A stretch of 32,000 nucleotides of DNA from Candidatus Saccharimonas sp. (GTDB lineage Bacteria > Patescibacteriota > Saccharimonadia > Saccharimonadales > Saccharimonadaceae), in NCBI GenBank assembly GCA_015256915.3, contig CP076101.2:180001-212000 (forward strand). The letters run 5' to 3'. Positions 1 through 32,000 of the stretch are shown one piece after another. The position numbers and the translations under genes are program-made. Numbering within the stretch: the first letter of the stretch is position 1; every line of letters begins with the position of its first letter. The notes under the pieces were generated by a model. The model had not been told where the DNA came from, ran no database searches, and was given only the letters and a program-made list of their open reading frames with translations.

Positions 1-897
1 TCAAATAAAAAACTTACTGCTGCAATGCTATTTTTTGCGGTGAATGGCAATATTCAGATTGTTGAAAAAACTTCGAAGGGCTTTTTGGGTGGCAAGAAAA
101 AGAGCTATACAATTCAGCTATTAAATCGAGATAATTTGAATCAAGATATGCTTTCATTATTAAATTCATTTTTTAGAAGTAAAACTGAGATTGATTTATC
201 TAAACAAATGAGTAGTACGCAAGCCTCTGATATTTCTTCGAAAGTTTTAAACTCCGCATTTAGCGGAACTTCTTACTATGTTCAAGAAAAGCCAGCAGTG
301 TTCAGTAATTCTCAGTTTTTTGCTGGCGGAGTGACTATTTTATCTGTGGTATTGTTTTTTGCGAGCGGAATAATAGTTAATTTTATTTCAACTATTTCAC
401 CTTGGTTTACGGTAGCTATATGTTCTTTCATTGCAGCCGTTATGCTCTCAATTTTAATATTTACTATTTCAAATATAAAAATTCCATCTCGAAAAGGTTT
501 TGAAGCAAAAAATTATCTTGAAGGTTTAAAGCTTTATATTTCAGTAGCAGAAAGCGAACGGTTAAAATTTTCGCAAAGTTTGCAGAATTCTGAAAGATTC
601 CAAACTGAATTTGGTGGCTCTCGCGTAAAACTTTATGAAAAACTTTTACCTTGGGCAGCGTTGTTCGGGCTAGAGAAGTCTTGGGCGAAGGTGCTTGAAT
701 TGCAATTTCAAGATGAAAATTATCTACCAGATTGGTATGTTGGCTCAACAGCATTTAATGCTATGGTGTTTTCTAATAGCTTGAATAGCTTTAATAGTGC
801 AATGAACAGTTATTCTGCGCCAAGTTCGAGCAGTTCTGGTGGAGGTGGTGGATTCTCTGGCGGCGGCGCTGGCGGCGGCGGTGGTGGTGGTTGGTAA
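1..897 (+). CDS. DUF2207-like membrane protein, C-terminal part (5' end lies outside the window)
   Basis: Frame 1 is open from base 1, with no stop before the listed ATG at 25; stop TAA at 895-897. Two hydrophobic helices (GVTILSVVLFFASGIIVNFI, WFTVAICSFIAAVMLSILIF), then a soluble segment and a Ser/Gly tail (SSSSSGGGGGFSGGGAGGGGGGGW) typical of DUF2207 proteins. Family call is from memory. Confidence 0.7.
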   Translation, partial: SNKKLTAAMLFFAVNGNIQIVEKTSKGFLGGKKKSYTIQLLNRDNLNQDMLSLLNSFFRSKTEIDLSKQMSSTQASDISSKVLNSAFSGTSYYVQEKPAVFSNSQFFAGGVTILSVVLFFASGIIVNFISTISPWFTVAICSFIAAVMLSILIFTISNIKIPSRKGFEAKNYLEGLKLYISVAESERLKFSQSLQNSERFQTEFGGSRVKLYEKLLPWAALFGLEKSWAKVLELQFQDENYLPDWYVGSTAFNAMVFSNSLNSFNSAMNSYSAPSSSSSGGGGGFSGGGAGGGGGGGW

Positions 898-930
898 AAC
901 CGCACCTTTCTATAAAGCAGATTTTCGAAA

Positions 931-963
931 AGTAGCTTGCAAAAAATGTAAGCTACTTTTTTG
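931..963 (+). terminator. Rho-independent terminator after the DUF2207-like gene
   Basis: 10-bp stem AGTAGCTTGC/GTAAGCTACT (931-940 with 948-957), 7-nt loop, then a T run. Confidence 0.7.
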
Positions 964-983
964 TAGTAAAAAGCATAACTATA

Positions 984-1021: not shown

Positions 1022-3550
1022 ATGAAAAGATTTTGGGTTGGGTTGAAAAATAAAAAAGTTTTGATTATTTTTACTTTAATTTGTAGTTTTTTTGGGCTTA
1101 GTATTTTTTTGAATAACAATGTTTATGCTGAGAATATTGGTCAGGGAGGACAATCATTCAGAACTCAATATGAAGGTGCTTCTAAGTCTGGATGCGATTA
1201 TTTTCAAACTTATGGACCTACTGGTCAAAGACAGGAAAGTGATAGTAGTAGAGCTTGTAAAAAAGCTATTGAGGAAGGCGCATCCGGAAATGGTAAGAAA
1301 GTTACTAACGCACAAGAATGGGTTCTTCTAAGATGTGAAGCATATGGAACTCGAGGTGTAAGTATTAGTGATGGATATAGTGGAGCTACAAAAAATTCAA
1401 AAGAATGCCAAGAGGAATCTATAAAGCAGGGTTTTTCTAAGAAAGACAGTGTTGCTACTGATAAGGAAGTTACTAAAGATGCTTCAAAATCTTCATCAGA
1501 CAATAAGCCTGGTGAAGGTGATAAAGATAAAGATAAAGATAAAGATAATAAAGACAAAAATTCTTGCGCTATTGAATGGATTGGCTGGATTGTTTGCCCG
1601 ATTGTTCGTGGTTCAACTGGTGTTGTTGTTGGTCTATATAATTTTATGCAAGCTAATTTCTTAAATATTAAATCTGATCAACTTTTTTCAAATTCTGGGA
1701 AGGGCCAAGAGGCATTTAAACACTGGGTAACATTTAGAGATATTGCAAATATATTTTTTGTGATTATGATTGCGATAATAATTTTCTCGCAAGTAACTGG
1801 TGTAGGGATTTCTAACTACGGTATTAAGAAGATGCTTCCAAAAATTATTATTTATGCAATTTTAGTGAATATTTCTTGGTATATCGTTGTGATTGCTATT
1901 GATATTTCGAATATTGTTGGTAGTACTTTATTTAAGTGGCTATCAAATGATGGAAATTGGAACTTTTCTAGTGACGTCCAGAAAGAAACATCTCCTGTTG
2001 AAGGAATTTTAACAGGTACTGCAGCAACAGGTGCGCTTATCGCTGCAGGGGTTACCGCTGCTCTCGTTGGTGGAGCCACAATTCTTCTATTTATCGTCTC
2101 TGCTGCACTTGCTGTTGTAATGACTGTATTTATATTAATGATAAGGGAAGCAGCTGTTATAGTTCTTGTCGTGACTTCTCCTTTAGCTTTTGTTGCAGGA
2201 TTATTGCCAAATACAGAAGGAGTCTTCAAAAAGTGGGTCAAGCTTACAAAAAATATGCTAATAATTTACCCAATTTGTTCGTTAATAGTCGGTGGTGCTT
2301 TGTTTGTCTCTAATTTACTATATGGCGTAGTTGATGACCCTCTACTTAAAATTATTTATGGCGTTTTGCCTATATTATCGCTATTTGCAATTATTGCAGT
2401 TATTAAAACTGTACTTTCGTTTATTGATGGCTTGACTGGCGGAAATTTGCGTGGCGCTATTGACAAAATGTCTGGTAAAATTAATTCTGTTGGTCAGAAT
2501 TCAAACTGGGCCAAGGCTTCAAGAGAGAAAGCTGCAAATAGGAGTATTGCTGGAATTCCTATTGGTAAAAATGCTCGTACAGCAAAATATGAAGAGGGTC
2601 AATATAGAAGAAATCGTAATGAACTTCGAAAACTTCAAGCAAAGAGAAACCCTACCGCTTCAGATTATCGAAGAATGGGGCAACTTGGTGCTGCTATTGG
2701 TGGTTTTGAAAAAGGTCAAACCGATGGAATGGTTACTGCTATGGCTTCAGGAATTGGTAACAGTGTATCGAATGTCAATTCTGAGCTTGCAAGAATTTCG
2801 AATGTTTCTGATCCTGTTCAACAAGGTTTAATGTATAGTGCTCTTTCACAAGCAGTGACAAAATCGGGCCTTAATAGTGCTGGTCAGGCTGCTGCAATGA
2901 GTAGTATTGCTAATAGTGCTTTAAATATTGGCGATTCTGAACAGAGAAAATCTGTTGCGGCTCAAATTGCATCAAAAGCTGGTAGTGATATTAAGAAGGT
3001 TAACCCTGCTGCAGCAAAAGCAGTCATGCAAGATTTTTCTTCAGAAAATATCAAATCTGTTCAAGATTTTGAAAATGATATTTCAACATACTCAGGTGCA
3101 AGTGCTAAGCAAATGGCTGATTGGTCTGACATGTCTAGCGCAAATGTTAATGATAATAAAGCGTTTAAGGCAATGCAAAGCGCATTTAATAGTGGTGACC
3201 AAAGCAAGATTTTACAAGCACAGAATATGGGTAAGATTGCTGAGCAAGCTCTCACTGCCAATGCAAATGGAACAATGTCCCTAACGCCAGACCAGCAGGC
3301 TAACTTTATGGCGATGCAAAAGTTGGCTCAATCTCAAGCTTCACAAACGGCTGCGGATACAGCAAGCAATACTCAATATTCTACTAGTCAAAAGGTAGAA
3401 GTGAATTATCAAACTTCAGCTTCACAGCAAGATCAGAGCGGGTCGTCCACCTTTAGCTCCGATACGTATAATGCACCCCCAGCACAAGCTACTCAAGCCT
3501 CGCAGCCAATAAATAATAATAGTAGTAATCAAAATATTCAACCTCGGTAA
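1022..3550 (+). CDS. Large multi-pass membrane protein: secreted Cys-module N-domain, central TM bundle, long Q/S/A/N-rich tail (VirB6/TrbL/TcpH-like topology, homology unverified)
   Basis: 842-aa ORF. Signal peptide ends in NNNVYA/EN. The secreted ~150-aa region carries two similar C..YGxxG...C...I..G.S modules. A (DK)n linker follows, then at least 7 hydrophobic helices between about aa 185 and 480, then a ~350-aa low-complexity tail. Confidence 0.85.
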   Translation: MKRFWVGLKNKKVLIIFTLICSFFGLSIFLNNNVYAENIGQGGQSFRTQYEGASKSGCDYFQTYGPTGQRQESDSSRACKKAIEEGASGNGKKVTNAQEWVLLRCEAYGTRGVSISDGYSGATKNSKECQEESIKQGFSKKDSVATDKEVTKDASKSSSDNKPGEGDKDKDKDKDNKDKNSCAIEWIGWIVCPIVRGSTGVVVGLYNFMQANFLNIKSDQLFSNSGKGQEAFKHWVTFRDIANIFFVIMIAIIIFSQVTGVGISNYGIKKMLPKIIIYAILVNISWYIVVIAIDISNIVGSTLFKWLSNDGNWNFSSDVQKETSPVEGILTGTAATGALIAAGVTAALVGGATILLFIVSAALAVVMTVFILMIREAAVIVLVVTSPLAFVAGLLPNTEGVFKKWVKLTKNMLIIYPICSLIVGGALFVSNLLYGVVDDPLLKIIYGVLPILSLFAIIAVIKTVLSFIDGLTGGNLRGAIDKMSGKINSVGQNSNWAKASREKAANRSIAGIPIGKNARTAKYEEGQYRRNRNELRKLQAKRNPTASDYRRMGQLGAAIGGFEKGQTDGMVTAMASGIGNSVSNVNSELARISNVSDPVQQGLMYSALSQAVTKSGLNSAGQAAAMSSIANSALNIGDSEQRKSVAAQIASKAGSDIKKVNPAAAKAVMQDFSSENIKSVQDFENDISTYSGASAKQMADWSDMSSANVNDNKAFKAMQSAFNSGDQSKILQAQNMGKIAEQALTANANGTMSLTPDQQANFMAMQKLAQSQASQTAADTASNTQYSTSQKVEVNYQTSASQQDQSGSSTFSSDTYNAPPAQATQASQPINNNSSNQNIQPR
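1520..1543 (+). repeat. In-frame hexanucleotide tandem repeat (GATAAA)x4 encoding (DK)4
   Basis: Four perfect GATAAA units, then degenerate units GATAAT AAAGAC AAAAAT. Lies in the linker between the secreted head and the first TM helix of the 842-aa protein. Confidence 0.9.
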
Positions 3551-3606
3551 ACTGTGAGCGATCCAACTAAATCAAACAGAAAATTTGGTGCTAACTAAAT
3601 ATAGGA

Positions 3607-3640
3607 AACACTCTTTCAAAAACAGAAAGGGTGTTTTTTT
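3607..3640 (+). terminator. Rho-independent terminator after the 842-aa gene
   Basis: Stem ACACTCTTTC/GAAAGGGTGT (one G-U pair), loop AAAAACA, followed by T7. Confidence 0.75.
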
Positions 3641-3650
3641 GCATAAAATA

Positions 3651-3659
3651 TGCTAAAAT
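3651..3659 (+). promoter_or_regulatory. Candidate extended -10 box upstream of murD
   Basis: TGcTAAAAT. murD is 33 nt downstream and has an SD (GGAG at 3685-3688). Confidence 0.4.
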
Positions 3660-3692
3660 AAAATAAAGATAATCTAAACTAAAAGGAGAAAT

Positions 3693-5027
3693 ATGAAAAT
3701 TGCATTAATTGGTTTTGGGCTCGAAGCAAAAAGTGCTTATGATTATTTTAAAAGTATTGATCAAAATATTACTTTTGAAATTTATGACGAAAACTCAAAA
3801 AGTAAAATTGAGCTACCAAATGGTGTTAAATTCTTTGGTGATTTTCATGATTTTTCAAAAATTCAAGCAGATTTGATTGTGCGAACACCTGCAGTTAATC
3901 CTAGCCGTTTGCCAAAAAGTGCTAAAATTACATCTGTTACAAATTTATTTTTTGAAAAATGCCCAGCATCAATTATTGGTGTAACCGGCTCAAAAGGTAA
4001 GGGAACGGTATCGAGTTTTATTGCTGAAATTTTGCGTGCAGCCGGTTTGAAGGTTTATCTTGTTGGCAATATTGGCTTACCAGCGCTTAATGAGCTTTCA
4101 AAAATTCAAAAAGATGATGCCGTGATTTATGAGCTCAGTAGCTTTCAGCTTTGGGATGCTCAAAAATCGCCACATATTGCAATTTTAAATAATCTTGAAG
4201 TTGATCACCTTGATGTTCATGATGGCTTTGAAGATTATGTGGCTGCAAAAATGAATATTGCTAAGAATCAAACCGAGAATGATTTTTTTATTTTTAATGC
4301 TGAAAATCCAATAGTTTTAAAAAATGTTGAAAACTTAAAAAATCAGCTCAAGGCAGAACTTCAGCCTTTTCGGGATTATAATTTAGCCCATATTCAGGAA
4401 AACCATTTTTTATGGGGAGATGAAGTTCTCTTCGAAACTAATATTTTGAAAATTCCAGGCGAACACAATCAAAAAAATGCTTGTGCCGCAATGATTGCAA
4501 CTTTTGATTTTTTGCGTGAAAAAGGTTTTGAAAATGAGGAAATATTCGATTTTTGGCGAGAAGGGCTTTCGAAATTTGCAGGTTTACCGCATCGGTTAAA
4601 ATTTGTTCGTGAGTTTGAGGGTGTGCGATTTTATGATGATTCCATTGCAACCACACCGGGTAGTGCGATTGCTGCACTAAATTCTTTCGAAAAGCCAAAA
4701 ATTTTAATTCTTGGCGGAAGCAATAAAGGTGCTGATTTAAGTGGGCTGATTGAAAAAATTGCAAAAATGCCAGAGCAAGAACTTCGAAAGGTAATTTTAA
4801 TGGGGGCAGAATCTGAAAAACTAGCCCAGAAATTGATATCAAGCGGATTCGAGCGGTTTATAAATCTAGGTGCAAAAACAAATATGCAAGAAGTTGTAAA
4901 AACTGCTTTCAAAAACGCGAAAAGTGGCGATGTGGTTATTTTAAGTCCAGCTCATGCCAGTTTTGATATGTTTAAGAGTTATATTGATCGCGGTGAACAA
5001 TTTGTTGAAAATGCAAACCTTTTATGA
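3693..5027 (+). CDS. murD: UDP-N-acetylmuramoylalanine--D-glutamate ligase
   Basis: 444 aa. Rossmann-like N-terminus, Mur-ligase P-loop GVTGSKGKGT, and GLPHRLKFVRE..V.FYDDSIATTP matching the MurD GLPHR.E...NDSKAT signature. Stop is TGA. Confidence 0.9.
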   Translation: MKIALIGFGLEAKSAYDYFKSIDQNITFEIYDENSKSKIELPNGVKFFGDFHDFSKIQADLIVRTPAVNPSRLPKSAKITSVTNLFFEKCPASIIGVTGSKGKGTVSSFIAEILRAAGLKVYLVGNIGLPALNELSKIQKDDAVIYELSSFQLWDAQKSPHIAILNNLEVDHLDVHDGFEDYVAAKMNIAKNQTENDFFIFNAENPIVLKNVENLKNQLKAELQPFRDYNLAHIQENHFLWGDEVLFETNILKIPGEHNQKNACAAMIATFDFLREKGFENEEIFDFWREGLSKFAGLPHRLKFVREFEGVRFYDDSIATTPGSAIAALNSFEKPKILILGGSNKGADLSGLIEKIAKMPEQELRKVILMGAESEKLAQKLISSGFERFINLGAKTNMQEVVKTAFKNAKSGDVVILSPAHASFDMFKSYIDRGEQFVENANLL

Positions 5028-6651: not shown

Positions 6652-6727
6652 GGCTCTTTAGCTCAGTTGGTAGAGCAGAGGCCTGAAGAGCCTTGTGTCC
6701 CCAGTTCAAGTCTGGGAGGAGCCACCA
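6652..6727 (+). tRNA. tRNA-Phe (anticodon GAA), CCA encoded
   Basis: Cloverleaf folded by hand. Acceptor GGCTCTT/AGGAGCC; D arm GCTC-AGTTGGTA-GAGC; anticodon arm GAGGC-CTGAAGA-GCCTT; variable loop GTGTC; T arm CCCAG-TTCAAGT-CTGGG; discriminator A; CCA at 6725-6727. Confidence 0.95.
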
Positions 6728-6760: not shown

Positions 6761-6789
6761 TTTTTATAAAATAAAGTTTCGAAAAGCAC

Positions 6790-9278: not shown

Positions 9279-9327
9279 AATAGGCTTTTGAAAGTCTATT
9301 TTTGTTATTTACTTTTAAAAAAGAAAG

Positions 9328-9336
9328 TGGTATAAT
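9328..9336 (+). promoter_or_regulatory. Extended -10 box upstream of the surface protein gene
   Basis: TGgTATAAT, then a 43-nt leader with an SD GGGAG (9370-9374) 5 nt before the ATG at 9380. Confidence 0.5.
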
Positions 9337-9379
9337 AATTTTAAGCATAAGTGTTTATATAATTAAAAAGGGAGAAAAA

Positions 9380-10684
9380 ATGAATTTTCGAAGTAAAATA
9401 ACAATTTTTATTCTTGCTGCGTTATTCTCAATAGTTAGCTTTGGCTCTTCTGCCTTTGCTGCCAAGGACATAACCAGCCAGCTAAAGATTGAGCCTAAGA
9501 GCATTAAGAGTAGCGGGCGCGAGTGGTCGATCGACATTTCTGGCCAGAATGTTAAAGAAGGGGACTGGGCGGCTTTTCGTGCTGAAAATATATCGTTGAT
9601 TCCGGGTAATAGTGTTGACTTGAAATACAAGAATGATAAAATTGGTATTATTTCTGTAGATAAGATTTATAGTGATGGGCACGGATTGAACGTTTCAAGT
9701 GTTGTTCGTAATGATGAAAATGCCAAACCAGGATCTACTGTCTGGCAGGGGAAAATTGTTTTCAATAAGAATATTGAAAAATATGCCGATTTTAAAACCT
9801 CTATTTCTAACAATAATACTAATTATTTCTCATATGTAAATCGTGATGTTACTGTAGAAACTAAAATTATTGGTAGCACTACTTTAAAAGGTGAAGATGT
9901 TAAACTCACTAAACAGCCTCTGATAAATATAAACAAGACAACTACCGGTCTTAGTGGGGCTCAATTTAATTCTAATAGTGGTGGTTCTGTCTTTGGTCCA
10001 ACTATAGTTTATTCTAAGAATGACCCTATCAAGGCTGGCTCTAAGATTAAAATTACTATGACCGAAGATTCTTCGATCCGTTTTGATGATAAGACTTATC
10101 CTGTTGGCTCGACTGTATTGTTAAACAGAATGCGTGAAAGTATAACCGCTTCCACCCCTGTAAATAAATATGGTGTTTACTTTGTTGGTGGACCTTCTAT
10201 GGAGTTAAAGGTTGTTTCTCGCTCTGAGACCGAGATAGTTCTTGAATTTGTTAAAGATGCACCCGCAGTAGACGGTATCTATAGGGGCTGGATTTCTTCT
10301 ATAAAAGTGGTAGATGGTTCGGCTATTAAAAACGGAACTATCAATGATGTTAAACATATAGTTGATTTAGTTGCACCTAACGGAAATACTATTGATAAGA
10401 GGGGATTCAATGGAAGTGCGCCGATATTTGGTAGCAACGTAGAAACCTATGCCAAAATCCGCAAGCCGGAAGCAAAGCCACAAAAACCTGCACCTGTACC
10501 AACTCCAGCTCAACCGCAACCGGCTGTTGAGGTTTCAAAAGATGAAAAGCCTTCATCATCAAAAGTTCAAGCTCCAAACACTGGTTTTGAAAAATCTCAA
10601 AATTTCATTATTCTAGCTTTTGCCATTTTGGGTGTAACTACTGCAGTAGTTTTTCGCAAAAAATTGGCAAAAATAAAAATCTAA
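9380..10684 (+). CDS. Cell-surface protein with signal peptide and C-terminal sortase-type sorting signal (APNTG + TM + basic tail)
   Basis: Start moved to ATG 9380 (MNFRSKITIFILAALFSIVSFGSSAFA/AKD). Pro-rich stalk KPEAKPQKPAPVPTPAQPQPA. C-terminus is QAPNTG-FEKSQNFIILAFAILGVTTAVVF-RKKLAKIKI. Confidence 0.8.
   Translation: MNFRSKITIFILAALFSIVSFGSSAFAAKDITSQLKIEPKSIKSSGREWSIDISGQNVKEGDWAAFRAENISLIPGNSVDLKYKNDKIGIISVDKIYSDGHGLNVSSVVRNDENAKPGSTVWQGKIVFNKNIEKYADFKTSISNNNTNYFSYVNRDVTVETKIIGSTTLKGEDVKLTKQPLININKTTTGLSGAQFNSNSGGSVFGPTIVYSKNDPIKAGSKIKITMTEDSSIRFDDKTYPVGSTVLLNRMRESITASTPVNKYGVYFVGGPSMELKVVSRSETEIVLEFVKDAPAVDGIYRGWISSIKVVDGSAIKNGTINDVKHIVDLVAPNGNTIDKRGFNGSAPIFGSNVETYAKIRKPEAKPQKPAPVPTPAQPQPAVEVSKDEKPSSSKVQAPNTGFEKSQNFIILAFAILGVTTAVVFRKKLAKIKI
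10566..10584 (+). repeat. 19-nt exact repeat, copy 1 (encodes the QAPNTG sorting motif)
   Basis: TTCAAGCTCCAAACACTGG is identical to 20763-20781. Confidence 0.9.
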
Positions 10685-10706
10685 TTTTATAGCAATTTAA
10701 ACAAAA

Positions 10707-10732
10707 AGCTCTCGAAAAACGGGAGCTTTTTT
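10707..10732 (+). terminator. Rho-independent terminator after the surface protein gene
   Basis: AGCTCTC-GAAAAAC-GGGAGCT followed by T6. The T tract runs into the next promoter. Confidence 0.75.
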
Positions 10733-10740
10733 GGTATAAT
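10732..10740 (+). promoter_or_regulatory. Extended -10 box upstream of glyQS
   Basis: TGgTATAAT. SD GGAGG at 10757-10761, 4 nt before the ATG at 10766. Confidence 0.5.
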
Positions 10741-10765
10741 AGTTAAAAGATTATACGGAGGAAAA

Positions 10766-12115
10766 ATGAAGAACGAAGATTTGATGGACAAAATTGTTAG
10801 TCTTGCTAAACGGCGGGGTTTTATTTGGCAAGGTAGTGAAGTTTATGGTGGAATGCGCGGAACTTGGGACTACGGCCCACTTGGGCTAGCTTTAAAGCGC
10901 AAAATTATGAATGAATGGTGGGAATTCTTTGTTGAAAATCGTGAAGACATGTTTGGCGTTGATGCTGCAATAATCATGAATCCAAAAGTTTGGCAGGCGA
11001 GTGGTCATGCTGCAACTTTTGCCGACCCTTTGGTGGAAGATTTAAAAACAGGCGAGCGATATCGTGCTGATCACCTTTTAAAAGATGCCGGAATTGAGGC
11101 GGAAGGACTTTCAAACGAGAAAATTACTGAAATCATCCGTGAGCAAGGCTTGAAATCGCCAAAAGGAAATGAACTTAGTGAAGTTCGAAGTTTCAACATG
11201 ATGTTTCAAACTAATGTTGGTGCAGTGGTGAATGAGAATTCAACCGCGTATCTTCGACCAGAAACTGCTCAGGGAATTTTTACTAATTACAAAAATGTAG
11301 TTGATTCGTTTTATCCAAGTTTGCCATTTGGTCTTGCGCAACAAGGAAAAGCTTTTCGAAACGAGATTTCGCCCCGAGATTTTGTTTTTCGTTCTCGCGA
11401 GTTTGAACAAATGGAGATTGAATATTTTGTAGATCCTGAGAATTGGGAAGCTGAATTTGAAAAATTGCTTAGGCTAGTTCGAAAATTCTTAACTGAAAAA
11501 ATGTGCTTGCCACAAAGTTCACTATATGAACTTGAAGTTCCAGAAGAAGACCGCGCGCATTATTCAAAACGCACTGTTGATTTTGAATTTAATTATCCAA
11601 TCGGCAAAGAAGAGCTGATGGGGATTGCTTATCGCACTGATTTTGATCTTGCTAATATCCAGCGGGCAAGTGGCAAGAATATGGAATATACTGATAAGCA
11701 AACGCGCAAAAAGTTCATTCCTCATGTGATTGAGCCAAGTTTTGGCGTTGAACGGCTTTTGATGGCGATTCTTTCTAATGCTTATCGCGAGGTTGAAACC
11801 GATGGCAAAACTCGTATTTTTTTGGCATTACCTGAAAATCTTGCTCCAACAAAAATCATTGTGGCACCACTTCTTAAAAATAAAGAAGCTTTGGTTGAAA
11901 AAGCACGAGAAATCTATCTTGAACTTCGCCAAAAATACAAAAATGTTGAATTTGATTTGAGCGGAAAAGTTGGAAAAGTTTATGCCAAGGCTGATGAAAT
12001 CGGTGTACCAAAAGTTGTTGTAATTGATTTTGACACAATTGAGGGCGATGGCTCGGTGAGTGTTCGAAATCGAGATGACGCCTCGCAAATTCGCGTAAAA
12101 TCGAGCGAGATTTAA
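10766..12115 (+). CDS. glyQS: Glycine--tRNA ligase (homodimeric class II type)
   Basis: N-terminus IVSLAKRRGFIWQGSEVYGGMRGTWDYGPLG, class II motifs FRNEISPR and EPSFGVERL, and a C-terminal anticodon-binding domain. Confidence 0.95.
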   Translation: MKNEDLMDKIVSLAKRRGFIWQGSEVYGGMRGTWDYGPLGLALKRKIMNEWWEFFVENREDMFGVDAAIIMNPKVWQASGHAATFADPLVEDLKTGERYRADHLLKDAGIEAEGLSNEKITEIIREQGLKSPKGNELSEVRSFNMMFQTNVGAVVNENSTAYLRPETAQGIFTNYKNVVDSFYPSLPFGLAQQGKAFRNEISPRDFVFRSREFEQMEIEYFVDPENWEAEFEKLLRLVRKFLTEKMCLPQSSLYELEVPEEDRAHYSKRTVDFEFNYPIGKEELMGIAYRTDFDLANIQRASGKNMEYTDKQTRKKFIPHVIEPSFGVERLLMAILSNAYREVETDGKTRIFLALPENLAPTKIIVAPLLKNKEALVEKAREIYLELRQKYKNVEFDLSGKVGKVYAKADEIGVPKVVVIDFDTIEGDGSVSVRNRDDASQIRVKSSEI

Positions 12116-20506: not shown

Positions 20507-20512
20507 TTTAAA

Positions 20513-20541
20513 ATTATAACATAAAATAAGCTTAATATCAA
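20513..20541 (-). promoter_or_regulatory. Promoter for the leaderless methyltransferase-rpmA operon (minus strand)
   Basis: On the minus strand: TTGATA (20541-20536), 17-nt spacer, TGtTATAAT (20521-20513), 6 nt to the ATG at 20506. Confidence 0.6.
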
Positions 20542-20632
20542 AGCAAAAACATATTGATATTTTTTTCGATTAATGATAAAATCAAATAGACATAAGAGTA
20601 ATGGAAATAAGAAAGGTGGAATAAATAAATAA

Positions 20633-21343
20633 ATGCAAGATCTAAAACTCAAAAAGCTTATCTGTCTAGATAAGCCTGCAGAAAACAATTTGGTTTCTGC
20701 AGCTCCATCTCCAACGGATAGAAAAACAGAAACTGTAGCTGCTCAACCAGCTCCAAAAAATATTCAAGCTCCAAACACTGGGGCACAAAACACAACAGGA
20801 ATTATTGCAACGATCCTTGTTCTAGCTCTAATCCTTGGACTAACAACTCTCATTACTTCAAAGCTAGGTAAGAAATCTAAAAAGATTATTCTTTCAATCT
20901 TCATGCTAGCTACAGCTACATTTGGTGGAATTAATGCTTTTTCAAAACTTTCTTACGCCGAAACCCTAGTTGACGGCAAACCTTGCCAAACTACTGGTTA
21001 CACTGACTACGAGGTTGGGGCGAATGTTACTGTGGGCATTAATATTGACGCATCTTACAACAAACCACAGCTTTTCATAAAAGTCAAAGGAACTGGCGAT
21101 CCAGAAAAAGACAAAGCAGCTCTAGCCGCAGAGATTGACAAGCTAAAAGATGACAAGGAATTGCTTAATAGTGTTATAAGAAATTTTAAAGAGAGCAATC
21201 CTACATCAGATATTGTTGCTGAAAAATTTAAAGGAAGATTTAAACAGGACATTTCTAAATCTCCAAAACAAGACGAGGAAAAGCAGATATATCAGATTTA
21301 TGCCGATTTTACAGCTTCCCGAATTTCTCGGCCACCACAATAA
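20633..21343 (+). CDS. Chimeric exported protein: N-terminal Pro-rich stalk + QAPNTG sorting signal fused in frame to a second signal-peptide-like segment and a ~135-aa domain
   Basis: 236-aa ORF. Residues ~20-85 (AAPSPTDRKTETVAAQPAPKNIQAPNTG-AQNTTGIIATILVLALILGLTTLITS-KLGKKSKK) have the layout of a sortase-substrate C-terminus. Next comes IILSIFMLATATFGGINAFSKLSYA/ET, which looks like a signal peptide. A weak SD GGTGG lies 12 nt upstream of the ATG. Confidence 0.6.
   Translation: MQDLKLKKLICLDKPAENNLVSAAPSPTDRKTETVAAQPAPKNIQAPNTGAQNTTGIIATILVLALILGLTTLITSKLGKKSKKIILSIFMLATATFGGINAFSKLSYAETLVDGKPCQTTGYTDYEVGANVTVGINIDASYNKPQLFIKVKGTGDPEKDKAALAAEIDKLKDDKELLNSVIRNFKESNPTSDIVAEKFKGRFKQDISKSPKQDEEKQIYQIYADFTASRISRPPQ
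20763..20781 (+). repeat. 19-nt exact repeat, copy 2 (encodes the QAPNTG sorting motif)
   Basis: TTCAAGCTCCAAACACTGG is identical to 10566-10584. Confidence 0.9.
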
Positions 21344-21360
21344 TCTTAATAACTATCAAA

Positions 21361-21390
21361 AATAGCACCAAAGGGTGTTATTTTTATTTT
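21361..21390 (+). terminator. Rho-independent terminator after the chimeric exported protein gene
   Basis: 9-bp stem AATAGCACC/GGTGTTATT (one G-U pair), loop AAAG, T-rich tail TTTTTATTTT. Confidence 0.65.
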
Positions 21391-21397
21391 GCGTTTA

Positions 21398-21406
21398 TGC
21401 TATAAT
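21398..21406 (+). promoter_or_regulatory. Extended -10 box for the leaderless two-gene cassette
   Basis: TGcTATAAT, 7 nt before the ATG at 21414. Confidence 0.55.
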
Positions 21407-21413
21407 ATATTAC

Positions 21414-22490
21414 ATGGAAGATGAAATTAGAACTGGATATTCAGAAAATACCGAAAACAAACAATACGAAATAGAAGAAAAAAACCACGAGGTTGAATTT
21501 TCTTTAGAGAAAGACGACTCGACTGATATTTTTCAATGGGCGAATTTAACAGATGGAATTAAGGGTGAGCTTGATGTAGAATTTTTCTTATTTAATAAAA
21601 ATTTTGTGCCTTTTACAACTAGTTTTTCAAGCGAATTGAACTCGCAAATTAAGCCGTTGTTTTTGTTTGATATGATTAATTTCGTAAATATGGGTGCAGG
21701 AACTGGTTTGAGCGTGCGAGACTATGAAATGGATGGTGGCGCGGGCAAAGATGTGCTTTTAAAAACTGAACTACAAAAAGTTCAACACGCTAATGCGCTA
21801 TTAAATATAATTGAAACGCAATATTCCGACATTGTGGAATTTAATGAAAACGAACATGATTTTAAGCGGATTAAAGGAATTTTGGCAAGGTTTACAAATT
21901 CGAAAGGCGAGAAATTTTATGTTGCTAAACAAATTATGCAAGGGCAGGTTTTGCGCGGAGCAACAGCTTGGGAATTTCGAAATGGTAAATTTGGTGCATT
22001 TGAGCCTGAATTTGGTTTAAAAATCCAGCCAGATAATCAAGTTTTGATCGTAAATAATGATATTTTTATTTTCAATCAAGGAAAATTTGAAAAACTCTTT
22101 AATTACGATTATAAAAAACAAGTTTTAGCTGATAAAAAAGTTTTGGAAATCGAAAGAAAGTATAAATTGAGTTTTCCTGATGGTTTAGATTTGCAAACTT
22201 TGGTTCGCGAGCATAAAAAGGCTGCTACGAAATTACAAAAAATGGATGAAATTGGTGAAATTTCGCAAGAAAAAGTGGTTGAATACGCCGATGAAATGCA
22301 GCTTGAATTAATGACGGACGACAACGGTGCAATCATTATTATGGATAGTAACGATTTAGATATGTTCGTGAATTTAATTAATGAAGATTACATCTTGAGC
22401 GAAATCACTGGTCGCCGTTATGAAATTAAAAGCAAAAAGTTGCTCGACGACCCAGAAGGTGAACCGCCACGAATGATCGGAAGCGAGTAG
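21414..22490 (+). CDS. Uncharacterised 358-aa cytoplasmic protein (possibly DUF4868/KwaB-like; unverified)
   Basis: Start moved to ATG 21414, because the listed 21375 start lies inside the terminator and promoter. Acidic N-terminal ~45 aa; no TM helix and no catalytic motif that I recognise. The C-terminal half (..VLIVNNDIFIFNQGKFEKLFNYDYKK.. ; ..LINEDYILSEITGRRYEIKSKK) resembles my memory of the DUF4868 layout. Confidence 0.8.
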   Translation: MEDEIRTGYSENTENKQYEIEEKNHEVEFSLEKDDSTDIFQWANLTDGIKGELDVEFFLFNKNFVPFTTSFSSELNSQIKPLFLFDMINFVNMGAGTGLSVRDYEMDGGAGKDVLLKTELQKVQHANALLNIIETQYSDIVEFNENEHDFKRIKGILARFTNSKGEKFYVAKQIMQGQVLRGATAWEFRNGKFGAFEPEFGLKIQPDNQVLIVNNDIFIFNQGKFEKLFNYDYKKQVLADKKVLEIERKYKLSFPDGLDLQTLVREHKKAATKLQKMDEIGEISQEKVVEYADEMQLELMTDDNGAIIIMDSNDLDMFVNLINEDYILSEITGRRYEIKSKKLLDDPEGEPPRMIGSE

Positions 22491-22499
22491 TTTTCGAAA

Positions 22500-24047
22500 A
22501 TGAAGCAAGCGTTAGCACTAGAGATTATGCTCTCAGGCGAAAATGTTTTTTTAACTGGTGCAGCGGGAAGTGGAAAAACTTTCACACTTAACCAGTTTAT
22601 TAAGCTTGCAAAAAATTCTGGAAAAAAGGTTAGCGTTACGGCTACCACTGGTTTAGCGGCAACTCATCTTGGAGGAAACACTATTCACGCTTGGAGCGGA
22701 ATTGGAATTTATGATTATCTTTCGAAAAAATTTTTTGAAAAATTCCCAAAAACGCGGGCTGAAATTATTAAAAATACAGATATTCTGGTTGTTGATGAAA
22801 TTTCTATGTTGCATGATTTTCGACTAGACATGGTTGAAGAAATTTGTCGCACAATTCGCCAAAATGATAAACCTTTCGGTGGAATTCAGATAATTTTATG
22901 TGGTGATTTTTTTCAGCTACCGCCAATTAACCGAGCTGGTGGGCGAACTGGTGGTTTTGCGATTCATTCGAATGCCTGGAAGCTTGCCAAATTTACGATT
23001 TGCTATCTTGAGGAAAATCACCGTCAAAAAAATGATGAACTATCTGAAATTTTAAACGCACTTAGAGCGGATGATTTACGTCGAAAGCACGCTCAAAGTT
23101 TGCTTGATCGCATTGATGTTGAGCTCAGTTTTAAAAGTGATGATTTTTCGAAAAACTTAACCGAACTCCACACTACTAATATAGATGTTGATAAAATAAA
23201 TGAACAAAAACTTACCGAACTTGAAGGTGAGGAGTTTCATTTTGCGCAAACCACAACTGGTGCGAAAAACTATATTGAAACTTTACAGAAGTCTGTTCTT
23301 GCGCCGGAACTATTGCGACTCAAAAAAGGTGCTTTAGTGATGGCAGTAAAAAATGCCCAAAACCGCCAATACGTGAACGGTTCAATTGGAGAAGTTATTG
23401 ATTTTGAAAGATCAACAGATTACCCAATTGTTCAATTTCGAAATGGCAAAATTATTACAATGGTGCCAGAAACTTGGGAGATGCGTGATGGTGAAAAAAA
23501 GCGAGCAAGTATTATGCAAATTCCACTCCGGCTGGCATATGCAATTACGGTTCATAAAAGTCAAGGAATGACACTCGATGCCGCTCGAATCGACCTTCGA
23601 AAAGCCTTTTCTGAAGGAATGGGTTATGTGGCACTTTCTCGTGTTCGCTCTCTTGATAGACTTTATTTGCTTGGAATAAATCGCACTGCTTTGATGGTTA
23701 GTGAAGAAGCGCGGAAGATTGATTTTATACTTAAAAATGAAAGTTTAAAAGCCGAAAAGCGTTTTTCGCACTTAAAAGAAGTTGCTAAAAAGCGTGAAGC
23801 AGGCGAAATTGTTGAGGTACAACCATCAAAAACAACTTGGGCTGAAAAGCTTGAAAAAATGCGGCAAGAATATCCAAATGCGTATCGTGCGTGGAGACTT
23901 GTTGATGATTCGAAATTACAAGAAATGGTTTTCGAAAATGGCAAAATTGATGCAGATTTAATTGCTAAATTGAGTAAAGAACTAGGCCGTCACAAAGGCT
24001 CGATTGTAGCTCGCATAAAAAAACTCTTTGGCGAAGATGCTATATAA
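22500..24047 (+). CDS. Pif1/RecD-family SF1B DNA helicase with a C-terminal HTH-like extension
   Basis: Motif I GAAGSGKT, Ia TATTGLAA, II LVVDEISM, III ILCGDFFQLPP; late motifs AITVHKSQGMT and GYVALSRVRS. About 110 aa extra at the C-terminus (..YRAWRLVDDSKLQEM....IAKLSKELGRHKGSIVARIKKL). Starts 9 nt after the upstream gene. Confidence 0.9.
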   Translation: MKQALALEIMLSGENVFLTGAAGSGKTFTLNQFIKLAKNSGKKVSVTATTGLAATHLGGNTIHAWSGIGIYDYLSKKFFEKFPKTRAEIIKNTDILVVDEISMLHDFRLDMVEEICRTIRQNDKPFGGIQIILCGDFFQLPPINRAGGRTGGFAIHSNAWKLAKFTICYLEENHRQKNDELSEILNALRADDLRRKHAQSLLDRIDVELSFKSDDFSKNLTELHTTNIDVDKINEQKLTELEGEEFHFAQTTTGAKNYIETLQKSVLAPELLRLKKGALVMAVKNAQNRQYVNGSIGEVIDFERSTDYPIVQFRNGKIITMVPETWEMRDGEKKRASIMQIPLRLAYAITVHKSQGMTLDAARIDLRKAFSEGMGYVALSRVRSLDRLYLLGINRTALMVSEEARKIDFILKNESLKAEKRFSHLKEVAKKREAGEIVEVQPSKTTWAEKLEKMRQEYPNAYRAWRLVDDSKLQEMVFENGKIDADLIAKLSKELGRHKGSIVARIKKLFGEDAI

Positions 24048-24088: not shown

Positions 24089-24125
24089 AAAAGACTTTCG
24101 AAAATTCGAGAGTCTTTTAGTTTTG
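24089..24125 (+). terminator. Strong terminator after the helicase gene
   Basis: AAAAGACT/AGTCTTTT outer stem, extended by inner TTCGAA/TTCGAG pairing, then a T-rich tail. Confidence 0.75.
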
Positions 24126-26142: not shown

Positions 26143-26196
26143 TATTTGACGCTTTCGAAAAACAAAAACAAAAATTTAAAACAGAAACTAAACTTT

Positions 26197-26630: not shown

Positions 26631-26663
26631 GGTTAAGCTTTTTTCGAAAAATCACAAAAAGTG

Positions 26664-29458: not shown

Positions 29459-29459
29459 A

Positions 29460-31028
29460 ATGGAAAGAAGGAATAGGAATTTGAGTGAACGACGGGGTTT
29501 TGAAAACTATTCATCTCGTCGTCAAGCTCGAACGCCACAAGTTCGAAATTCATCTTTTCGAAAATCACGTAACCAAAGCTTTTTAAAAAGTGATTTGAAG
29601 AATGATAATTTTTCAGCAATTTTTCAGCAATTTTTGAACGGTGATTTTGCAGGTTTTTTGGAGCGAGTTATATTTTTAATTCGTTCAATGTTTTTAATTT
29701 TCATCGTAAATCCTTGTATGAGAATTTACGAAAGTGTTAAAGCTGACAATAAAAAACGCCTCAATCTTGAAGGTTTCGAAAAAATCCGCAAGCATCGTGC
29801 AAATTATATGCTATTTCTTTTTATCTGTCTGTTGCTGCTGATTGGTTTGGTTGTAATGTTTTCATTAAGCCCACAGCGAGCAAATTCATTGAATATTGCT
29901 AAAGGTGCGAACTACGATGATTATTATTTCTTCTGGCGACATTTAATTTATATTGCGGTTGGTTTGGTTTTCTTTTTTGGAATGAAGGCAATTCCACTCA
30001 ACTGGATTTTTTCGAAATCATTACAATTCTTTATCTTTTCTCTAATTTTATGTGTAGCTCTTGCAGGTTTAGCGTTGTTTAATCTTCCTCCTGTAATTTG
30101 TGAAAATGGAGCTTGTCGCTGGTTTGGCTTTTCTGGTTTCAGTTTTCAGCAAGCTGAGTTTTTAAAGATTGGCGTGATTTTGCTTCTTTCAACTTTCCTT
30201 GGCGCTCAAGCTTCGAATGGAAAAATCAACAGTTATAAAGAAACGATTCTACCGGCTTCAGTTGTGATTATTGCGGTGCTTTTGGTGATTGCTGGTTTTC
30301 AAAAAGATCTTGGAACGGCAACGACAATTATTATCGCAATTGCATTTCAGTTTATTATTGCAGGAATGAAGTCTAAAAAATTAATTCCAATTGGTGTGTT
30401 GGTTTTGGTTGGGGTTGTTCTTCTGATTGTTTTCGAACCTCATCGAATTTCTCGAATTTTAACTTTTTCGAGTGGCGATTGTAGCAACATTTTAACTGAA
30501 AGTGGTAAAGATCAATACCATATTTGTAATGCAAAGCTCGCAATTGGCTCGGGCGGAGTTTTGGGCTTAGGGATTGGAAATTCAGTTCAATCTGCTGGCT
30601 ATTTGCCTGAAACCATTAATGACTCAATTTTTGCCGTAATGGGAGAAATGTTTGGTTTTGTCGGTTTAATTTTTATTATTGCAATTTATTTCGGGCTGTT
30701 TTATCAGCTTCTTGTAATTATTTCAAAAATGGAAAACCCCGCGAGCCGCCTTTTTGTGGCCGGTGTTGCTGGGTGGCTAGCTTCGCAAACAATTATTAAT
30801 ATTGCAGCGATGGTTGGGCTATTTCCACTTAAAGGTATTACAATTCCGTTAATTTCTTATGGTGGAACGAGTTTGGTTGTTATTTTGACAGTTCTTGGTG
30901 TTGTGTTTAATATTTCGAATTACACATCATTTACTCAAGTTGAAGATTTTAAGGAGGAAGGCAATGAAAATATTGGCAGTCGGCGGCGGGTCAGGCGGTC
31001 ACGTAGTTCCAATCGTGGCAGTTTTTAA
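29460..31028 (+). CDS. ftsW: SEDS-family peptidoglycan glycosyltransferase FtsW, with Arg-rich N- and C-terminal extensions
   Basis: Core from about aa 115 (YMLFLFICLLLLIGLVVMFSLSP...) with SEDS motifs (QQAEFLKI, KDLGTA, LPETINDSIFAVMGEMFG, PLISYGGTS). ~110-aa basic N-terminal extension. The last 65 nt overlap murG. Confidence 0.9.
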   Translation: MERRNRNLSERRGFENYSSRRQARTPQVRNSSFRKSRNQSFLKSDLKNDNFSAIFQQFLNGDFAGFLERVIFLIRSMFLIFIVNPCMRIYESVKADNKKRLNLEGFEKIRKHRANYMLFLFICLLLLIGLVVMFSLSPQRANSLNIAKGANYDDYYFFWRHLIYIAVGLVFFFGMKAIPLNWIFSKSLQFFIFSLILCVALAGLALFNLPPVICENGACRWFGFSGFSFQQAEFLKIGVILLLSTFLGAQASNGKINSYKETILPASVVIIAVLLVIAGFQKDLGTATTIIIAIAFQFIIAGMKSKKLIPIGVLVLVGVVLLIVFEPHRISRILTFSSGDCSNILTESGKDQYHICNAKLAIGSGGVLGLGIGNSVQSAGYLPETINDSIFAVMGEMFGFVGLIFIIAIYFGLFYQLLVIISKMENPASRLFVAGVAGWLASQTIINIAAMVGLFPLKGITIPLISYGGTSLVVILTVLGVVFNISNYTSFTQVEDFKEEGNENIGSRRRVRRSRSSNRGSF

Positions 31029-32000
31029 AGAAATTTTAAAGAAAAATCCAAAAGTAGAATTACATTTTTGGTGTGATAAAAAATTTGCACCACAGGCTAA
31101 AAAAATAATGACTGATTCTTTTGGTGAAAGAGTTAAAATTTCAAAAATTTCAAGTGGGAAATTTCGCCGCTACAATCACTTAACTTTTTGGCAGCATCTT
31201 ACAATTCCAAGTGTTGTTTTTGGTAATCTTATAGATATTTTTCGAAATATTGCCGGTATTTTTCAGTCTTTTTTCAAACTATTTTTTTGGCAACCAGATG
31301 TTATTTTCTGCAAAGGCGGGTTTGTTTGTGTTCCTGTTGGAATAAGCGCTTGGATTTTGAGAATTCCAATTGTAATTCATGATTCTGATGCTCACCCAGG
31401 TTTAGCTAATCGTATTATTTCAAAATTTGCTAAAAGAATTGCAACAGGCGCACCGCTCGAATTTTATAATTATCCAAAAGAAATTTCAAAATATGTTGGA
31501 ATTCCAGTACTTGAAAATTTTAAAAAATATAGCAAAAAAGAACAAGATAATTTTAAGGTTGAGCTCGGGTTTTCGAAAGATAAGCCTCTTGTTTTAGTTA
31601 CTGGTGGCGGTCTTGGTGCAGCTCGGCTTAATAATGCGGTAGTTTCGAAGGGTGAGGAACTTTCAAAATCTGCTCAAATTGTTCTAATCTCTGGCGTATC
31701 TCAATTTGATGAACTTAAGAGAAAAACTGAGGGATTTTCGAAGGATTTTTACTTGTTAAGTTTTGTATCAAAAGATATGTGGAAGTTTTTAGCTGCTGCA
31801 GATTTGGTTGTTGCTCGGGCTGGTGCAACTTCCAACCTTGAACTTGCCGCGCTTCACAAGCCAACAATCCTTGTTCCAAATGCAAGATTAACGGGCGGGC
31901 ATCAATTAAAAAATGCGCAGGTTTATCAAAAATCTAATGCTGTTAAGATTGTTTCTGACGATGAAATTGAAAAAAATCCAGAAATTCTTTCAGATGAAAT
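30964..32000 (+). CDS. murG: Lipid II synthase MurG (undecaprenyl-PP-MurNAc-pentapeptide GlcNAc transferase); 3' end outside the window
   Basis: Absent from the ORF track because no stop lies in the window. I translated frame 1 from ATG 30964 (SD AAGGAGG just upstream): MKILAVGGGSGGHVVPIVAV..., later TGGGLGA and ARAGATSNLELAA, with no stop up to base 32000. Confidence 0.9.
   Translation, partial: MKILAVGGGSGGHVVPIVAVFKEILKKNPKVELHFWCDKKFAPQAKKIMTDSFGERVKISKISSGKFRRYNHLTFWQHLTIPSVVFGNLIDIFRNIAGIFQSFFKLFFWQPDVIFCKGGFVCVPVGISAWILRIPIVIHDSDAHPGLANRIISKFAKRIATGAPLEFYNYPKEISKYVGIPVLENFKKYSKKEQDNFKVELGFSKDKPLVLVTGGGLGAARLNNAVVSKGEELSKSAQIVLISGVSQFDELKRKTEGFSKDFYLLSFVSKDMWKFLAAADLVVARAGATSNLELAALHKPTILVPNARLTGGHQLKNAQVYQKSNAVKIVSDDEIEKNPEILSDE

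Follow-up and report, generated by a model that had tools for sequence, protein, structure and literature searches.

The question raised by this locus is why one six-base palindrome, TTCGAA, should occur in it so much more often than its base composition predicts. The stretch concerned, hereafter the window, comprises the 32,000 bp at positions 180,001 to 212,000 of the forward strand of contig CP076101.2 from Candidatus Saccharimonas sp.; the lineage is one of gut Saccharibacteria (TM7) metagenome-assembled genomes (MAGs), deposited as 'uncultured Candidatus Saccharimonas sp.'. The analysis covered this 32-kb locus and ~11 kb of flanking DNA, with relatives compared at the level of the locus. 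The over-representation of TTCGAA is real, acts at the level of DNA and is present or absent in whole lineages. The explanation tentatively preferred for it is a methyltransferase-linked tag of self DNA, by analogy with the highly iterated palindrome (HIP1) of cyanobacteria.

TTCGAA is the most over-represented hexamer of the locus

The over-representation of TTCGAA is confirmed. An initial annotation, made from the letters of the sequence, had estimated by hand some 95 sites in 32 kb; the exact count is 95, or one per 337 bp. Given the composition of the window (A 0.334, T 0.310, G 0.205, C 0.151), Markov models of order 0, 1, 2 and 3 predict 10.6, 19.6, 33.9 and 44.0 sites, respectively, the enrichment being ~9-fold at order 0. 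TTCGAA ranks first among all hexamers for over-representation whether the model is of order 0 or of order 2, with TTCGAAA the most over-represented 7-mer and TTTCGAAA the most over-represented 8-mer; this octamer accounts for 41 of the 95 sites and is enriched ~37-fold at order 0. The expectation from the maximal-order (order 4) model, 85.7, is circular and hence uninformative, because the pentamers TTCGA and TCGAA on which it depends are themselves inflated by the motif.

The available evidence is that the whole palindrome is favoured, not its halves alone. Among all CG dinucleotides in the window, a left TT is combined with a right AA 95 times, compared with 38 times as predicted from independent TTCG and CGAA half-sites (2.5x, P = 6e-15), and overall the full palindrome lies 2.2-2.5x above such half-site predictions. 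The preference for flanking bases is weak, with T at position -1 in 65% of motif copies versus 41-44% of other _TTC contexts, and the unit is therefore the hexamer. The enrichment extends beyond both ends of the window on contigs from the same organism, for 9 kb past the 3' end (23 sites versus 3.1 expected) and for 1.9 kb past the 5' end (11 versus 0.7), and is seen again in more than 20 assemblies made independently in different studies.

A signal at the level of DNA

It is at the level of DNA, and not of protein or RNA, that the TTCGAA signal operates. When the synonymous codons of the 28 coding sequences called in the window were shuffled 1000 times, keeping proteins and codon usage, the number of coding TTCGAA sites fell from the 84 observed to 27.1 +/- 4.8 (pooled shuffle) or 28.9 +/- 4.6 (shuffle within each gene), giving z ~12; the highest count in the 1000 shuffles was 46, and permutation of codon order yielded 17.6. 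Nor is the motif one codon pair or the property of a single frame, as had already been noted from inspection: the three reading frames hold 14, 32 and 38 sites versus shuffle means of 6.5, 11.1 and 9.7, all three thus being enriched.

In non-coding DNA, once tRNA-Phe and murG are assigned, 8 sites are present in 2,971 bp versus 0.99 expected (P = 1e-5), a total that still contains the ~280-bp rpmA gene, which barely alters the expectation; the density in non-coding DNA therefore equals that in coding DNA. The eight sites that the initial annotation had placed outside genes are all non-coding:

924-929: TTCGAA between the DUF2207-like and TrbL-like genes.
6778-6783: TTCGAA downstream of tRNA-Phe (6652-6727), the start of the following gene being taken from the annotation of the related locus L086.
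15309-15314: TTCGAA between ftsX and the PcsB/CHAP-like gene.
18990-18995: TTCGAA at the apex of a hairpin between a response-regulator gene and the convergent rpmA (19015-19293, minus strand); RNA fold -14.3 kcal/mol.
22493-22498: TTCGAA in the 9 bp that separate the KwaB-like gene from the Pif1-like helicase gene.
24089-24118, plus strand: terminator-like hairpin, a 13-pair stem followed by a T-run, with TTCGAA (24097-24102) in the 5' stem arm paired to a downstream TTCGAG; fold -19.5 kcal/mol.
26154-26159: TTCGAA between rsmH and ftsL.
26643-26648: TTCGAA between ftsL and the penicillin-binding protein (PBP) gene.

The proposal of the initial annotation that TTCGAA is a selected or driven signal at the level of DNA, and not an effect of codon, dipeptide or base composition, is upheld for the locus and its ~11 kb flanks on all three of the grounds by which it might have failed: codon-preserving shuffles do not reproduce the count, the ratio of observed to expected (O/E) sites is far from 1, and the excess is spread over the frames.

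TGGTGG/CCACCA, which is also strongly over-represented and ranks second among the conspicuous k-mer families of the window, provides a contrast. It is strand-skewed (32 versus 7 copies; TGGTGGAA, for example, has 13 copies on the plus strand and 0 on the minus strand), and its excess is a coding effect, because 30 of the 32 plus-strand copies lie in one frame, as GGT-GGx codons for Gly-Gly, and no more than two genes lie on the minus strand. TGGTGG superficially resembles the Chi core GCTGGTGG, and is also found in L008, a relative in which TTCGAA is not enriched.

An on/off trait of lineages

The most informative result, which was absent from the initial annotation, is that enrichment is switched on or off between sister lineages. 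In a survey of 160 Saccharibacteria RF2 loci of ~20 kb each, TTCGAA is the top hexamer, at 6-13x the order-0 expectation, in every genome with an RF2 at least 83% identical to that of the window (L001-L007, L011 and L216-L220). It is likewise the top hexamer, with 93 sites in 21 kb and equal flank preferences, in L010, a Candidatus Nanogingivalis MAG with 72% RF2 identity. By contrast, it is at expectation in L008/L009 (78-79% RF2 identity) and L221 (71%), and almost none of the remaining lineages (~150 loci) exceeds expectation. A few contigs, mostly short, reach 2.5-7.5x the order-0 value but merely 1.0-1.9x the half-site expectation. Synonymous shuffles of individual loci gave the following coding counts:

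Window: 84 observed, 26.8 expected, ratio 3.1.
L003: 72 observed, 19.3 expected, ratio 3.7.
L011: 53 observed, 14.6 expected, ratio 3.6.
L007: 54 observed, 18.8 expected, ratio 2.9.
L010 (Nanogingivalis): 85 observed, 29.6 expected, ratio 2.9.
L008: 12 observed, 12.1 expected, ratio 1.0.
L009: 15 observed, 12.2 expected, ratio 1.2.
L030: 5 observed, 6.9 expected, ratio 0.7.

Enrichment is a discrete on/off lineage trait of a family-level clade. The genomes with the trait include CAURNF01, CAUSJG01, CALHPA01, CAKUZG01, CAUQGB01 and JBAQCW01 (Nanogingivalis), and those lacking it CALIJI01, JAUMVB01 and RRZU01. A neighbour-joining tree of RF2, with + and - denoting enrichment, has the form (L221-, (L010+, ((window clade+), (L008/L009-)))). 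Enriched and non-enriched lineages are interleaved in this single-gene tree, and there has therefore been either one gain followed by loss, or two gains. The sites shared by L010 and the window (7 of 24 versus 2.9 expected) fit an ancestral or a convergent origin alike, because at the observed saturation of permissive positions (37-63%, see below) convergence would give similar sharing.

The opposite pattern is suggested by loci elsewhere in the phylum. TTCGAA is entirely missing from many of the surveyed loci of at least 10 kb; in L067, L070, L073, L076 and L080, and also in L031, L043 and L060, there are no sites in 11-21 kb where 3-5 are expected at order 0. These loci are mostly of 52-54% GC, with two at 44-48%, and being related are not independent. 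They suggest avoidance, e.g. owing to a BstBI-type restriction system, the reverse of what is seen in the window clade.

Four palindromes were considered as possible iterated palindromes of other Saccharibacteria and are not claimed as such, since none is ever the top hexamer at order 2; they reach 3-6x at order 0, but 1.3-1.7x the half-site expectation (2.2x for GCTAGC in L041). The loci concerned are:

GCTAGC: L041 and L077.
TGATCA: L054, L055, L058 and L078.
CGATCG: L079.
CAATTG: L035, L039 and L044.

Saturation and turnover of sites

The force behind the motif is strong. TTCGAA can be accommodated without change of protein sequence in three types of context, i.e. Phe-Glu; Phe, Leu, Ile or Val followed by Arg and a codon starting with A; and any residue followed by Ser and then Lys or Asn. 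The proportion of these permissive contexts that carry the motif is 37-46% for the window clade and 63% for L010, compared with 5-13% in non-enriched genomes; in L010, TTC-GAA encodes 75% of Phe-Glu pairs. The contexts themselves are also more frequent, at 8.1-8.3 per kb in the window and L003 and 7.5-8.6 in L007 and L011 (7.2-8.6 over all enriched genomes) versus 5.0-6.1 elsewhere, which suggests some accommodation of the motif at the protein level.

Individual sites are not, by and large, fixed. Among seven ingroup lineages, which are 4-15% divergent, 20 of 85 motif positions are fixed and 65 are polymorphic, the alternative alleles being mostly TTCAAA and TTTGAA. Losses and putative gains (14) are both seen, and the density is 2.9-3.8 sites per kb throughout the clade. 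Compared with controls matched for gene and frame, without which the effect is exaggerated, conservation is modestly raised in three comparisons (37/44 versus 31.2, 41/45 versus 32.9 and, for L010, the 7/24 versus 2.9 already given; z ~0.8-2.9), and is below the controls in L008/L009 (1/24 versus 3.3). The combination of turnover, constant density and a background rate of substitution within sites (see below) indicates an equilibrium between mutation and a directional force, rather than sites that are individually essential.

Variable and accessory genes carry few sites

The window holds murD, mscL, prfB, recO, glyS, ftsEX, an rsmH-ftsL-PBP-mraY-ftsW-murG cluster and a TrbL-like type IV secretion gene, among others, as well as tRNA-Phe, rpmA and the start of murG. 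The first bases of the TTCGAA sites are:

1-8 kb: 72, 237, 924, 1906, 2625, 2797, 4431, 4568, 4686, 4783, 5577, 5758, 5770, 5831, 5983, 6407, 6531, 6778, 7429, 7879, 7961.
8-16 kb: 8014, 8513, 8728, 8909, 8946, 9007, 9387, 11184, 11355, 11478, 12063, 12168, 12185, 12446, 12780, 13265, 13469, 13872, 14335, 14421, 14703, 14770, 14976, 15136, 15309, 15791.
16-25 kb: 17507, 17588, 17795, 17819, 18431, 18990, 19524, 19850, 20196, 21899, 21976, 22493, 22721, 22967, 23147, 23437, 23596, 23909, 23931, 24097, 24556.
25-32 kb: 25512, 25660, 25677, 25788, 26154, 26492, 26561, 26643, 26834, 27035, 27934, 28069, 28108, 28152, 28783, 29290, 29542, 29557, 29775, 30011, 30212, 30432, 30914, 31241, 31572, 31644, 31737.

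Density is even across the core genes, without positioning relative to promoters or gene ends. Three long stretches devoid of the motif had been pointed out in the initial annotation, and they do exist, as the intervals between sites at 9387-11184, 15791-17507 and 20196-21899; there is a fourth at 2797-4431. Under uniform placement, the probability of a third-largest gap of at least 1,700 bp is 0.008. The four stretches contain:

2803-4430 (1.6 kb): beginning of murD, together with the 3' portion of the TrbL-like type IV secretion gene.
9393-11183 (1.8 kb): hypervariable gene 9302-10684 (function not assigned) and the start of glyS.
15797-17506 (1.7 kb): 3' portion of the PcsB/CHAP-like gene, then a spacer of 760 bp containing a single open reading frame (ORF) of 80 residues, and the start of the S41 protease gene.
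20202-21898 (1.7 kb): ORF of 236 residues and that part of a KwaB-like (Kiwa defence) gene which encodes the N-terminal half; motif-free in L081 also.

The last of these stretches had been described as a chimeric surface gene; it is instead a KwaB-like defence gene preceded by the 236-residue ORF, and is probably accessory DNA. The TrbL-like gene is 57-86% identical among close relatives, its L007 orthologue lying inside a 3.7-kb motif-free stretch, and the protein encoded at 9302-10684 is 54-97% identical among relatives, its orthologue being motif-poor in L007 and L011 too. Over the window, variable and accessory genes carry 1.05 sites per kb versus 3.48 in other genes, i.e. ~3.3x fewer (P = 7e-4), and the same genes are motif-poor or motif-free in L007, L011 and L081.

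A case of import in the reverse direction is provided by the core gene for a methyltransferase-like protein of 408 residues (19280-20506 in the window, minus strand; 17470-18693 in L009, 17469-18695 in L008 and 1-1049 in L081). The window protein is 95% identical to that of L009, 70% to that of L008 and 85% to that of L081, a locus otherwise ~100% identical to the window. L009 is a close relative of L008, yet its allele carries three TTCGAA sites at the positions of the donor and that of L008 none. Judged from these alignments, the gene is a recombination mosaic, the L009 tract, corresponding to approximately 19530-20410 in the window, having apparently been imported from the enriched clade. 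The suggestion in the initial annotation that the motif marks native versus acquired DNA thus gains support both from the depletion of variable genes and from the L009 import, with its three retained sites; density therefore marks DNA that has long been resident in the enriched clade.

Several further observations concern these regions. The TrbL/VirB6-like protein (gene 1022-3550) and the 460-residue protein encoded at 9302-10684 are 54-97% identical where the flanking genes are 94-100% identical, and the counterpart of the latter is broken into three ORFs in some strains (L086-L089). The AT-rich spacer between the PcsB/CHAP-like and S41 protease genes (16560-17318; ORF at 16900-17142) has no Rfam match and no TTCGAA. 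At 20633-24047 the 236-residue ORF, the KwaB-like (DUF4868, Kiwa) gene and a Pif1/RecD-like helicase gene, with 0, 2 and 7 TTCGAA sites, respectively, form a possible small defence island. The rpmA gene (ribosomal protein L27) is shorter than the 100-residue minimum of the ORF list; a conserved 300-bp block at 19081-19380 that was considered as a non-coding RNA proved to be this gene, being 91-99% identical where the genomes are otherwise ~65% identical.

What maintains the motif

The preferred explanation, which appears to have somewhat less than an even chance of being correct, is that TTCGAA is a methyltransferase-linked tag of self DNA that favours motif-bearing alleles in repair, recombination or natural transformation. 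The clade would encode a protein that reads TTCGAA, most likely an orphan DNA methyltransferase or one derived from a restriction-modification (R-M) system, which may act with a partner that recognizes the site once methylated; the strict palindromy points to a reader of the R-M type. Alleles bearing the tag would be preferentially kept or spread, whether because they are taken up, or recombine homologously, with greater efficiency in natural transformation, or through methyl-directed repair. The net effect would be a weak directional force acting genome-wide and resembling biased gene conversion, which would populate non-coding DNA as readily as the positions open to the motif by synonymous change, lag behind in genes that evolve fast or were recently acquired, and leave the motif to decay to background where a lineage loses the factor. 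A more specific form of this proposal, in which TTCGAA is a palindromic, methylation-read self tag gating DNA uptake or recombination in naturally competent Saccharibacteria, is rather unlikely as it stands.

Background of two kinds is relevant here. Saccharibacteria are naturally competent through ComEC, as found with cultured Saccharibacteria (Wang et al. 2023, PMC10633639), and N6-methyladenine (m6A) methylation of TTCGAA has been observed in a MAG from a thermophilic community (bioRxiv 10.64898/2026.06.24.734251). In the accessible Saccharibacteria/Patescibacteria literature there is no earlier report of TTCGAA or TTTCGAAA enrichment, of an iterated palindrome or of Saccharibacteria methylation motifs.

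A number of results weigh against the methyltransferase-linked tag. No TTCGAA-specific methyltransferase, endonuclease or receptor was found in the ~45 kb inspected (~5% of the genome), and a motif scan of 1.64 Mb of Saccharibacteria loci gave no ORFs for methyltransferases of the DPPY/NPPY or 5-methylcytosine (m5C) type. The methyltransferase-like ORF at 19280-20506 was considered as the TTCGAA methylase and rejected: it is syntenic in ~50 Saccharibacteria loci and is not the TTCGAA factor, because it is a core gene also of non-enriched lineages, and its only PDB matches are tRNA methyltransferases of the Trm11/TrmG10 type. A 6-bp tag separates self from foreign DNA poorly, at ~9-fold per site. 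Outside the four long gaps, site spacing is Poisson-like (coefficient of variation 1.09), with short gaps as frequent as expected and, in the gap analysis of the window, neither regular spacing nor clustering. Recent singleton substitutions inside the motif number 9 in 108 positions compared with ~0.11 per position elsewhere, so these (from 18 usable sites) give no sign of strong per-site constraint or of m5C hypermutability; transitions at the motif cytosines (3 in 36 positions versus 0.105 per position at other CpG) likewise show no CpG hypermutability, at low power.

Two other results were negative: there are no com genes in the window, and a search for phages of the clade by paired TTTCGAAA in viral contigs returned at least 120 loci, none with clade-like density among the matches listed.

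The rival that survives best, though on present evidence improbable, is a classical DNA-uptake sequence, in which a competence receptor would bind (T)TTCGAA(A) regardless of methylation and the motif would accumulate by Redfield-type molecular drive, without selection on each site. Much of what is described above is consistent with it: the occurrence of the motif in all frames and in non-coding DNA, the turnover of sites at constant density, the depletion of variable and accessory genes, the evidence for recombination between lineages, and the two terminator hairpins that contain the motif. The shift of amino-acid contexts toward the motif has a parallel in uptake signal sequences (USS; PMC2817400), and the phylum is naturally competent (PMC10633639), as judged from cultured Saccharibacteria. 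The known uptake sequences are, however, 9-12 bp long and non-palindromic, whereas a 6-mer gives only the ~9-fold discrimination noted above and its strict palindromy better suits a symmetric reader of the R-M type; moreover, no receptor was found in the ~5% of the genome inspected.

Binding by an abundant nucleoid-associated or architectural protein, or by a global regulator, with density kept by selection on chromosome structure, is distinctly unlikely. A palindrome would suit a dimeric DNA-binding protein, the modest excess of conservation over matched controls and the even density over core genes are as might be anticipated, and there is a precedent in the role proposed for HIP1 by Xu et al. 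(PMC5861425). By contrast, the absence of positioning at promoters or gene ends, the Poisson-like spacing and the complete lack of motif signal in sister lineages do not favour this proposal, and the polymorphism of 65 of 85 positions, with substitution at the background rate, speaks against a function of individual sites.

Dcm/Vsr inflates CCWGG in E. coli, and a neutral mutation or repair bias of this kind, e.g. Vsr-like very-short-patch repair turning T:G in TT(T/C)GAA to C:G, has to be considered here. The commonest alternative alleles, in gains as in losses, are the CpG-transition products TTCAAA and TTTGAA, and the ratio of TTCGAA to these two (TTTGAA or TTCAAA) is 1.1 in the clade compared with 0.31 in L008/L009; a repair-based model has also been advanced by Elhai for HIP (PMC4390886). 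C-to-T transitions are, however, the commonest change in any AT-rich genome, and the signature of a Vsr-type process, depletion of the neighbour derived from T:G, was sought and not found. TTTGAA/TTCAAA show no depletion (the clade has an order-1 O/E of 0.95 and L008/L009 one of 0.98, at 3.0 and 2.2 sites per kb, respectively), and the ratio of TTCGAA to each of its nine classes of one-mismatch neighbour, transversions included, exceeds that in L008/L009 by 2.8- to 11-fold. None of these classes is clearly depleted, the biggest drops being the ~two-fold ones of GTCGAA and TCCGAA, and their total density is level (8.1 versus 7.7 per kb). Gains are seen also from TTAGAA, TCCGAA, TTTTAA and CTCAAA. 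That all neighbours are outnumbered and none clearly depleted argues against mismatch-specific repair such as Dcm/Vsr, making a bias of this type an unlikely candidate, and fits processes acting on whole alleles, i.e. selection, or biased uptake, recombination or conversion. The data do not separate the three mechanisms entertained in the initial annotation, an uptake-like sequence, a protein-binding site and a methyltransferase-linked bias; they weaken only a mismatch-specific repair bias.

That the excess is an artefact, whether of base composition, of codon or dipeptide usage, of a dispersed repeat or of assembly, is so improbable that it is counted as refuted. The half-sites TTCG and CGAA are indeed common, as are the codons CGA and TCG, and the order-4 expectation is close to the count; but that expectation is circular, synonymous and codon-order shuffles give 18-29 sites versus 84, non-coding DNA is equally enriched, no conservation of flanks beyond +/-1 betrays a repeat element, and the signal recurs in the independent assemblies.

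Comparison with known systems

The closest precedent is HIP1 (GCGATCGC) of cyanobacteria, of which TTCGAA is best regarded as an AT-rich counterpart, an analogue and not a member. In both cases a short palindrome is over-represented many-fold, to roughly one or more copies per gene, occurs in all frames and in non-coding DNA, and lacks enrichment altogether in some lineages of the enriched group. As to conservation beyond background, the matched comparisons for TTCGAA (z 0.8-2.9) stand beside polymorphism at 65 of 85 positions and a background rate of singleton substitution. HIP1 has been linked by various proposals to orphan methyltransferases, biased repair, nucleoid structure and natural transformation: its abundance tracks that of cognate orphan methyltransferases (Elhai 2015, PMC4390886) and varies together with the DNA-uptake machinery (bioRxiv 10.64898/2026.06.24.733823), the sites show conservation (Xu et al. 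2018, PMC5861425), and natural transformation is enhanced by as much as 100-fold when HIP1 sites are methylated (Kamoku and Nielsen, bioRxiv 10.1101/2024.09.10.611283). There are also clear differences. The phylum here is Patescibacteria/Saccharibacteria, not cyanobacteria; the motif is an AT-rich 6-mer core with a weak 8-mer extension, whereas HIP1 is a GC-rich 8-mer; the order-0 enrichment (~9-fold for the hexamer, ~37-fold for the octamer) compares with 15-300-fold for HIP1; and the ~45 kb inspected hold no cognate DNA methyltransferase. The periodicity of HIP1 is on a scale of 10-90 kb, compared with a window of 32 kb here.

Hyper-abundant palindromes have so far been mainly cyanobacterial, and a clear case in an unrelated phylum, one with reduced genomes and natural competence, suggests a phenomenon of general occurrence. 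Were TTCGAA to be an uptake or recombination tag, it would be the first such signal in the Candidate Phyla Radiation (CPR) and a second independent origin of a HIP-like system, as well as a test case for the 30-year-old question of HIP1 function. Because sister lineages have the trait on (the window clade, Nanogingivalis) or off (L008/L009, L221), comparative genomics could name the reader protein. Should uptake or recombination be promoted by the motif or by its methylated form, as they are by HIP1, its addition to donor DNA could ease the genetics of Saccharibacteria and the CPR. Motif density may serve as a marker of native versus imported DNA, and so aid the binning of these genomes from metagenomes.

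The DNA uptake sequences (DUS) of Neisseriaceae and USS of Pasteurellaceae, of which naturally competent bacteria carry hundreds to thousands of copies, resemble TTCGAA in occupying all frames, in their impact on the proteome, in their scarcity in recently acquired DNA, in drive-like upkeep with turnover and in their presence in some terminator hairpins. They differ in being asymmetric motifs of 9-12 bp, read by a defined receptor (ComP in Neisseria). Assignment to this class rests on an asymmetric motif of at least 9 bp with a dedicated receptor, and TTCGAA is a perfect 6-bp palindrome with weak +/-1 flanks.

By analogy, TTCGAA can also be set beside the short palindromic methylation targets whose frequency is shaped by an enzyme system, i.e. 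the GATC of Dam, the GANTC of CcrM and the CCWGG of Dcm/Vsr. GATC and GANTC are, however, near random expectation, compared with a 9-fold enrichment of TTCGAA, and neighbour depletion of the Dcm/Vsr kind was not found. The recognition site of the BstBI/AsuII R-M systems is the same hexamer, making a methyltransferase of such specificity an obvious candidate reader; for the target of an active R-M system avoidance is predicted, the reverse of the 9-fold enrichment seen here, and a pattern of that kind appears in other Saccharibacteria, several loci having 0 sites versus 4-5 expected. Chi (RecBCD/AddAB) is likewise a short over-represented marker of self DNA, one that modulates recombination, and HIP1 too has been proposed to act in a Chi-like way. 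Chi is an asymmetric sequence, its skew following the direction of replication, whereas a palindrome cannot be skewed. Among these systems, the kind to which TTCGAA belongs, that of hyper-abundant palindromes and uptake-like sequences, is known; the sequence, the phylum and the unusually clean on/off distribution are new.

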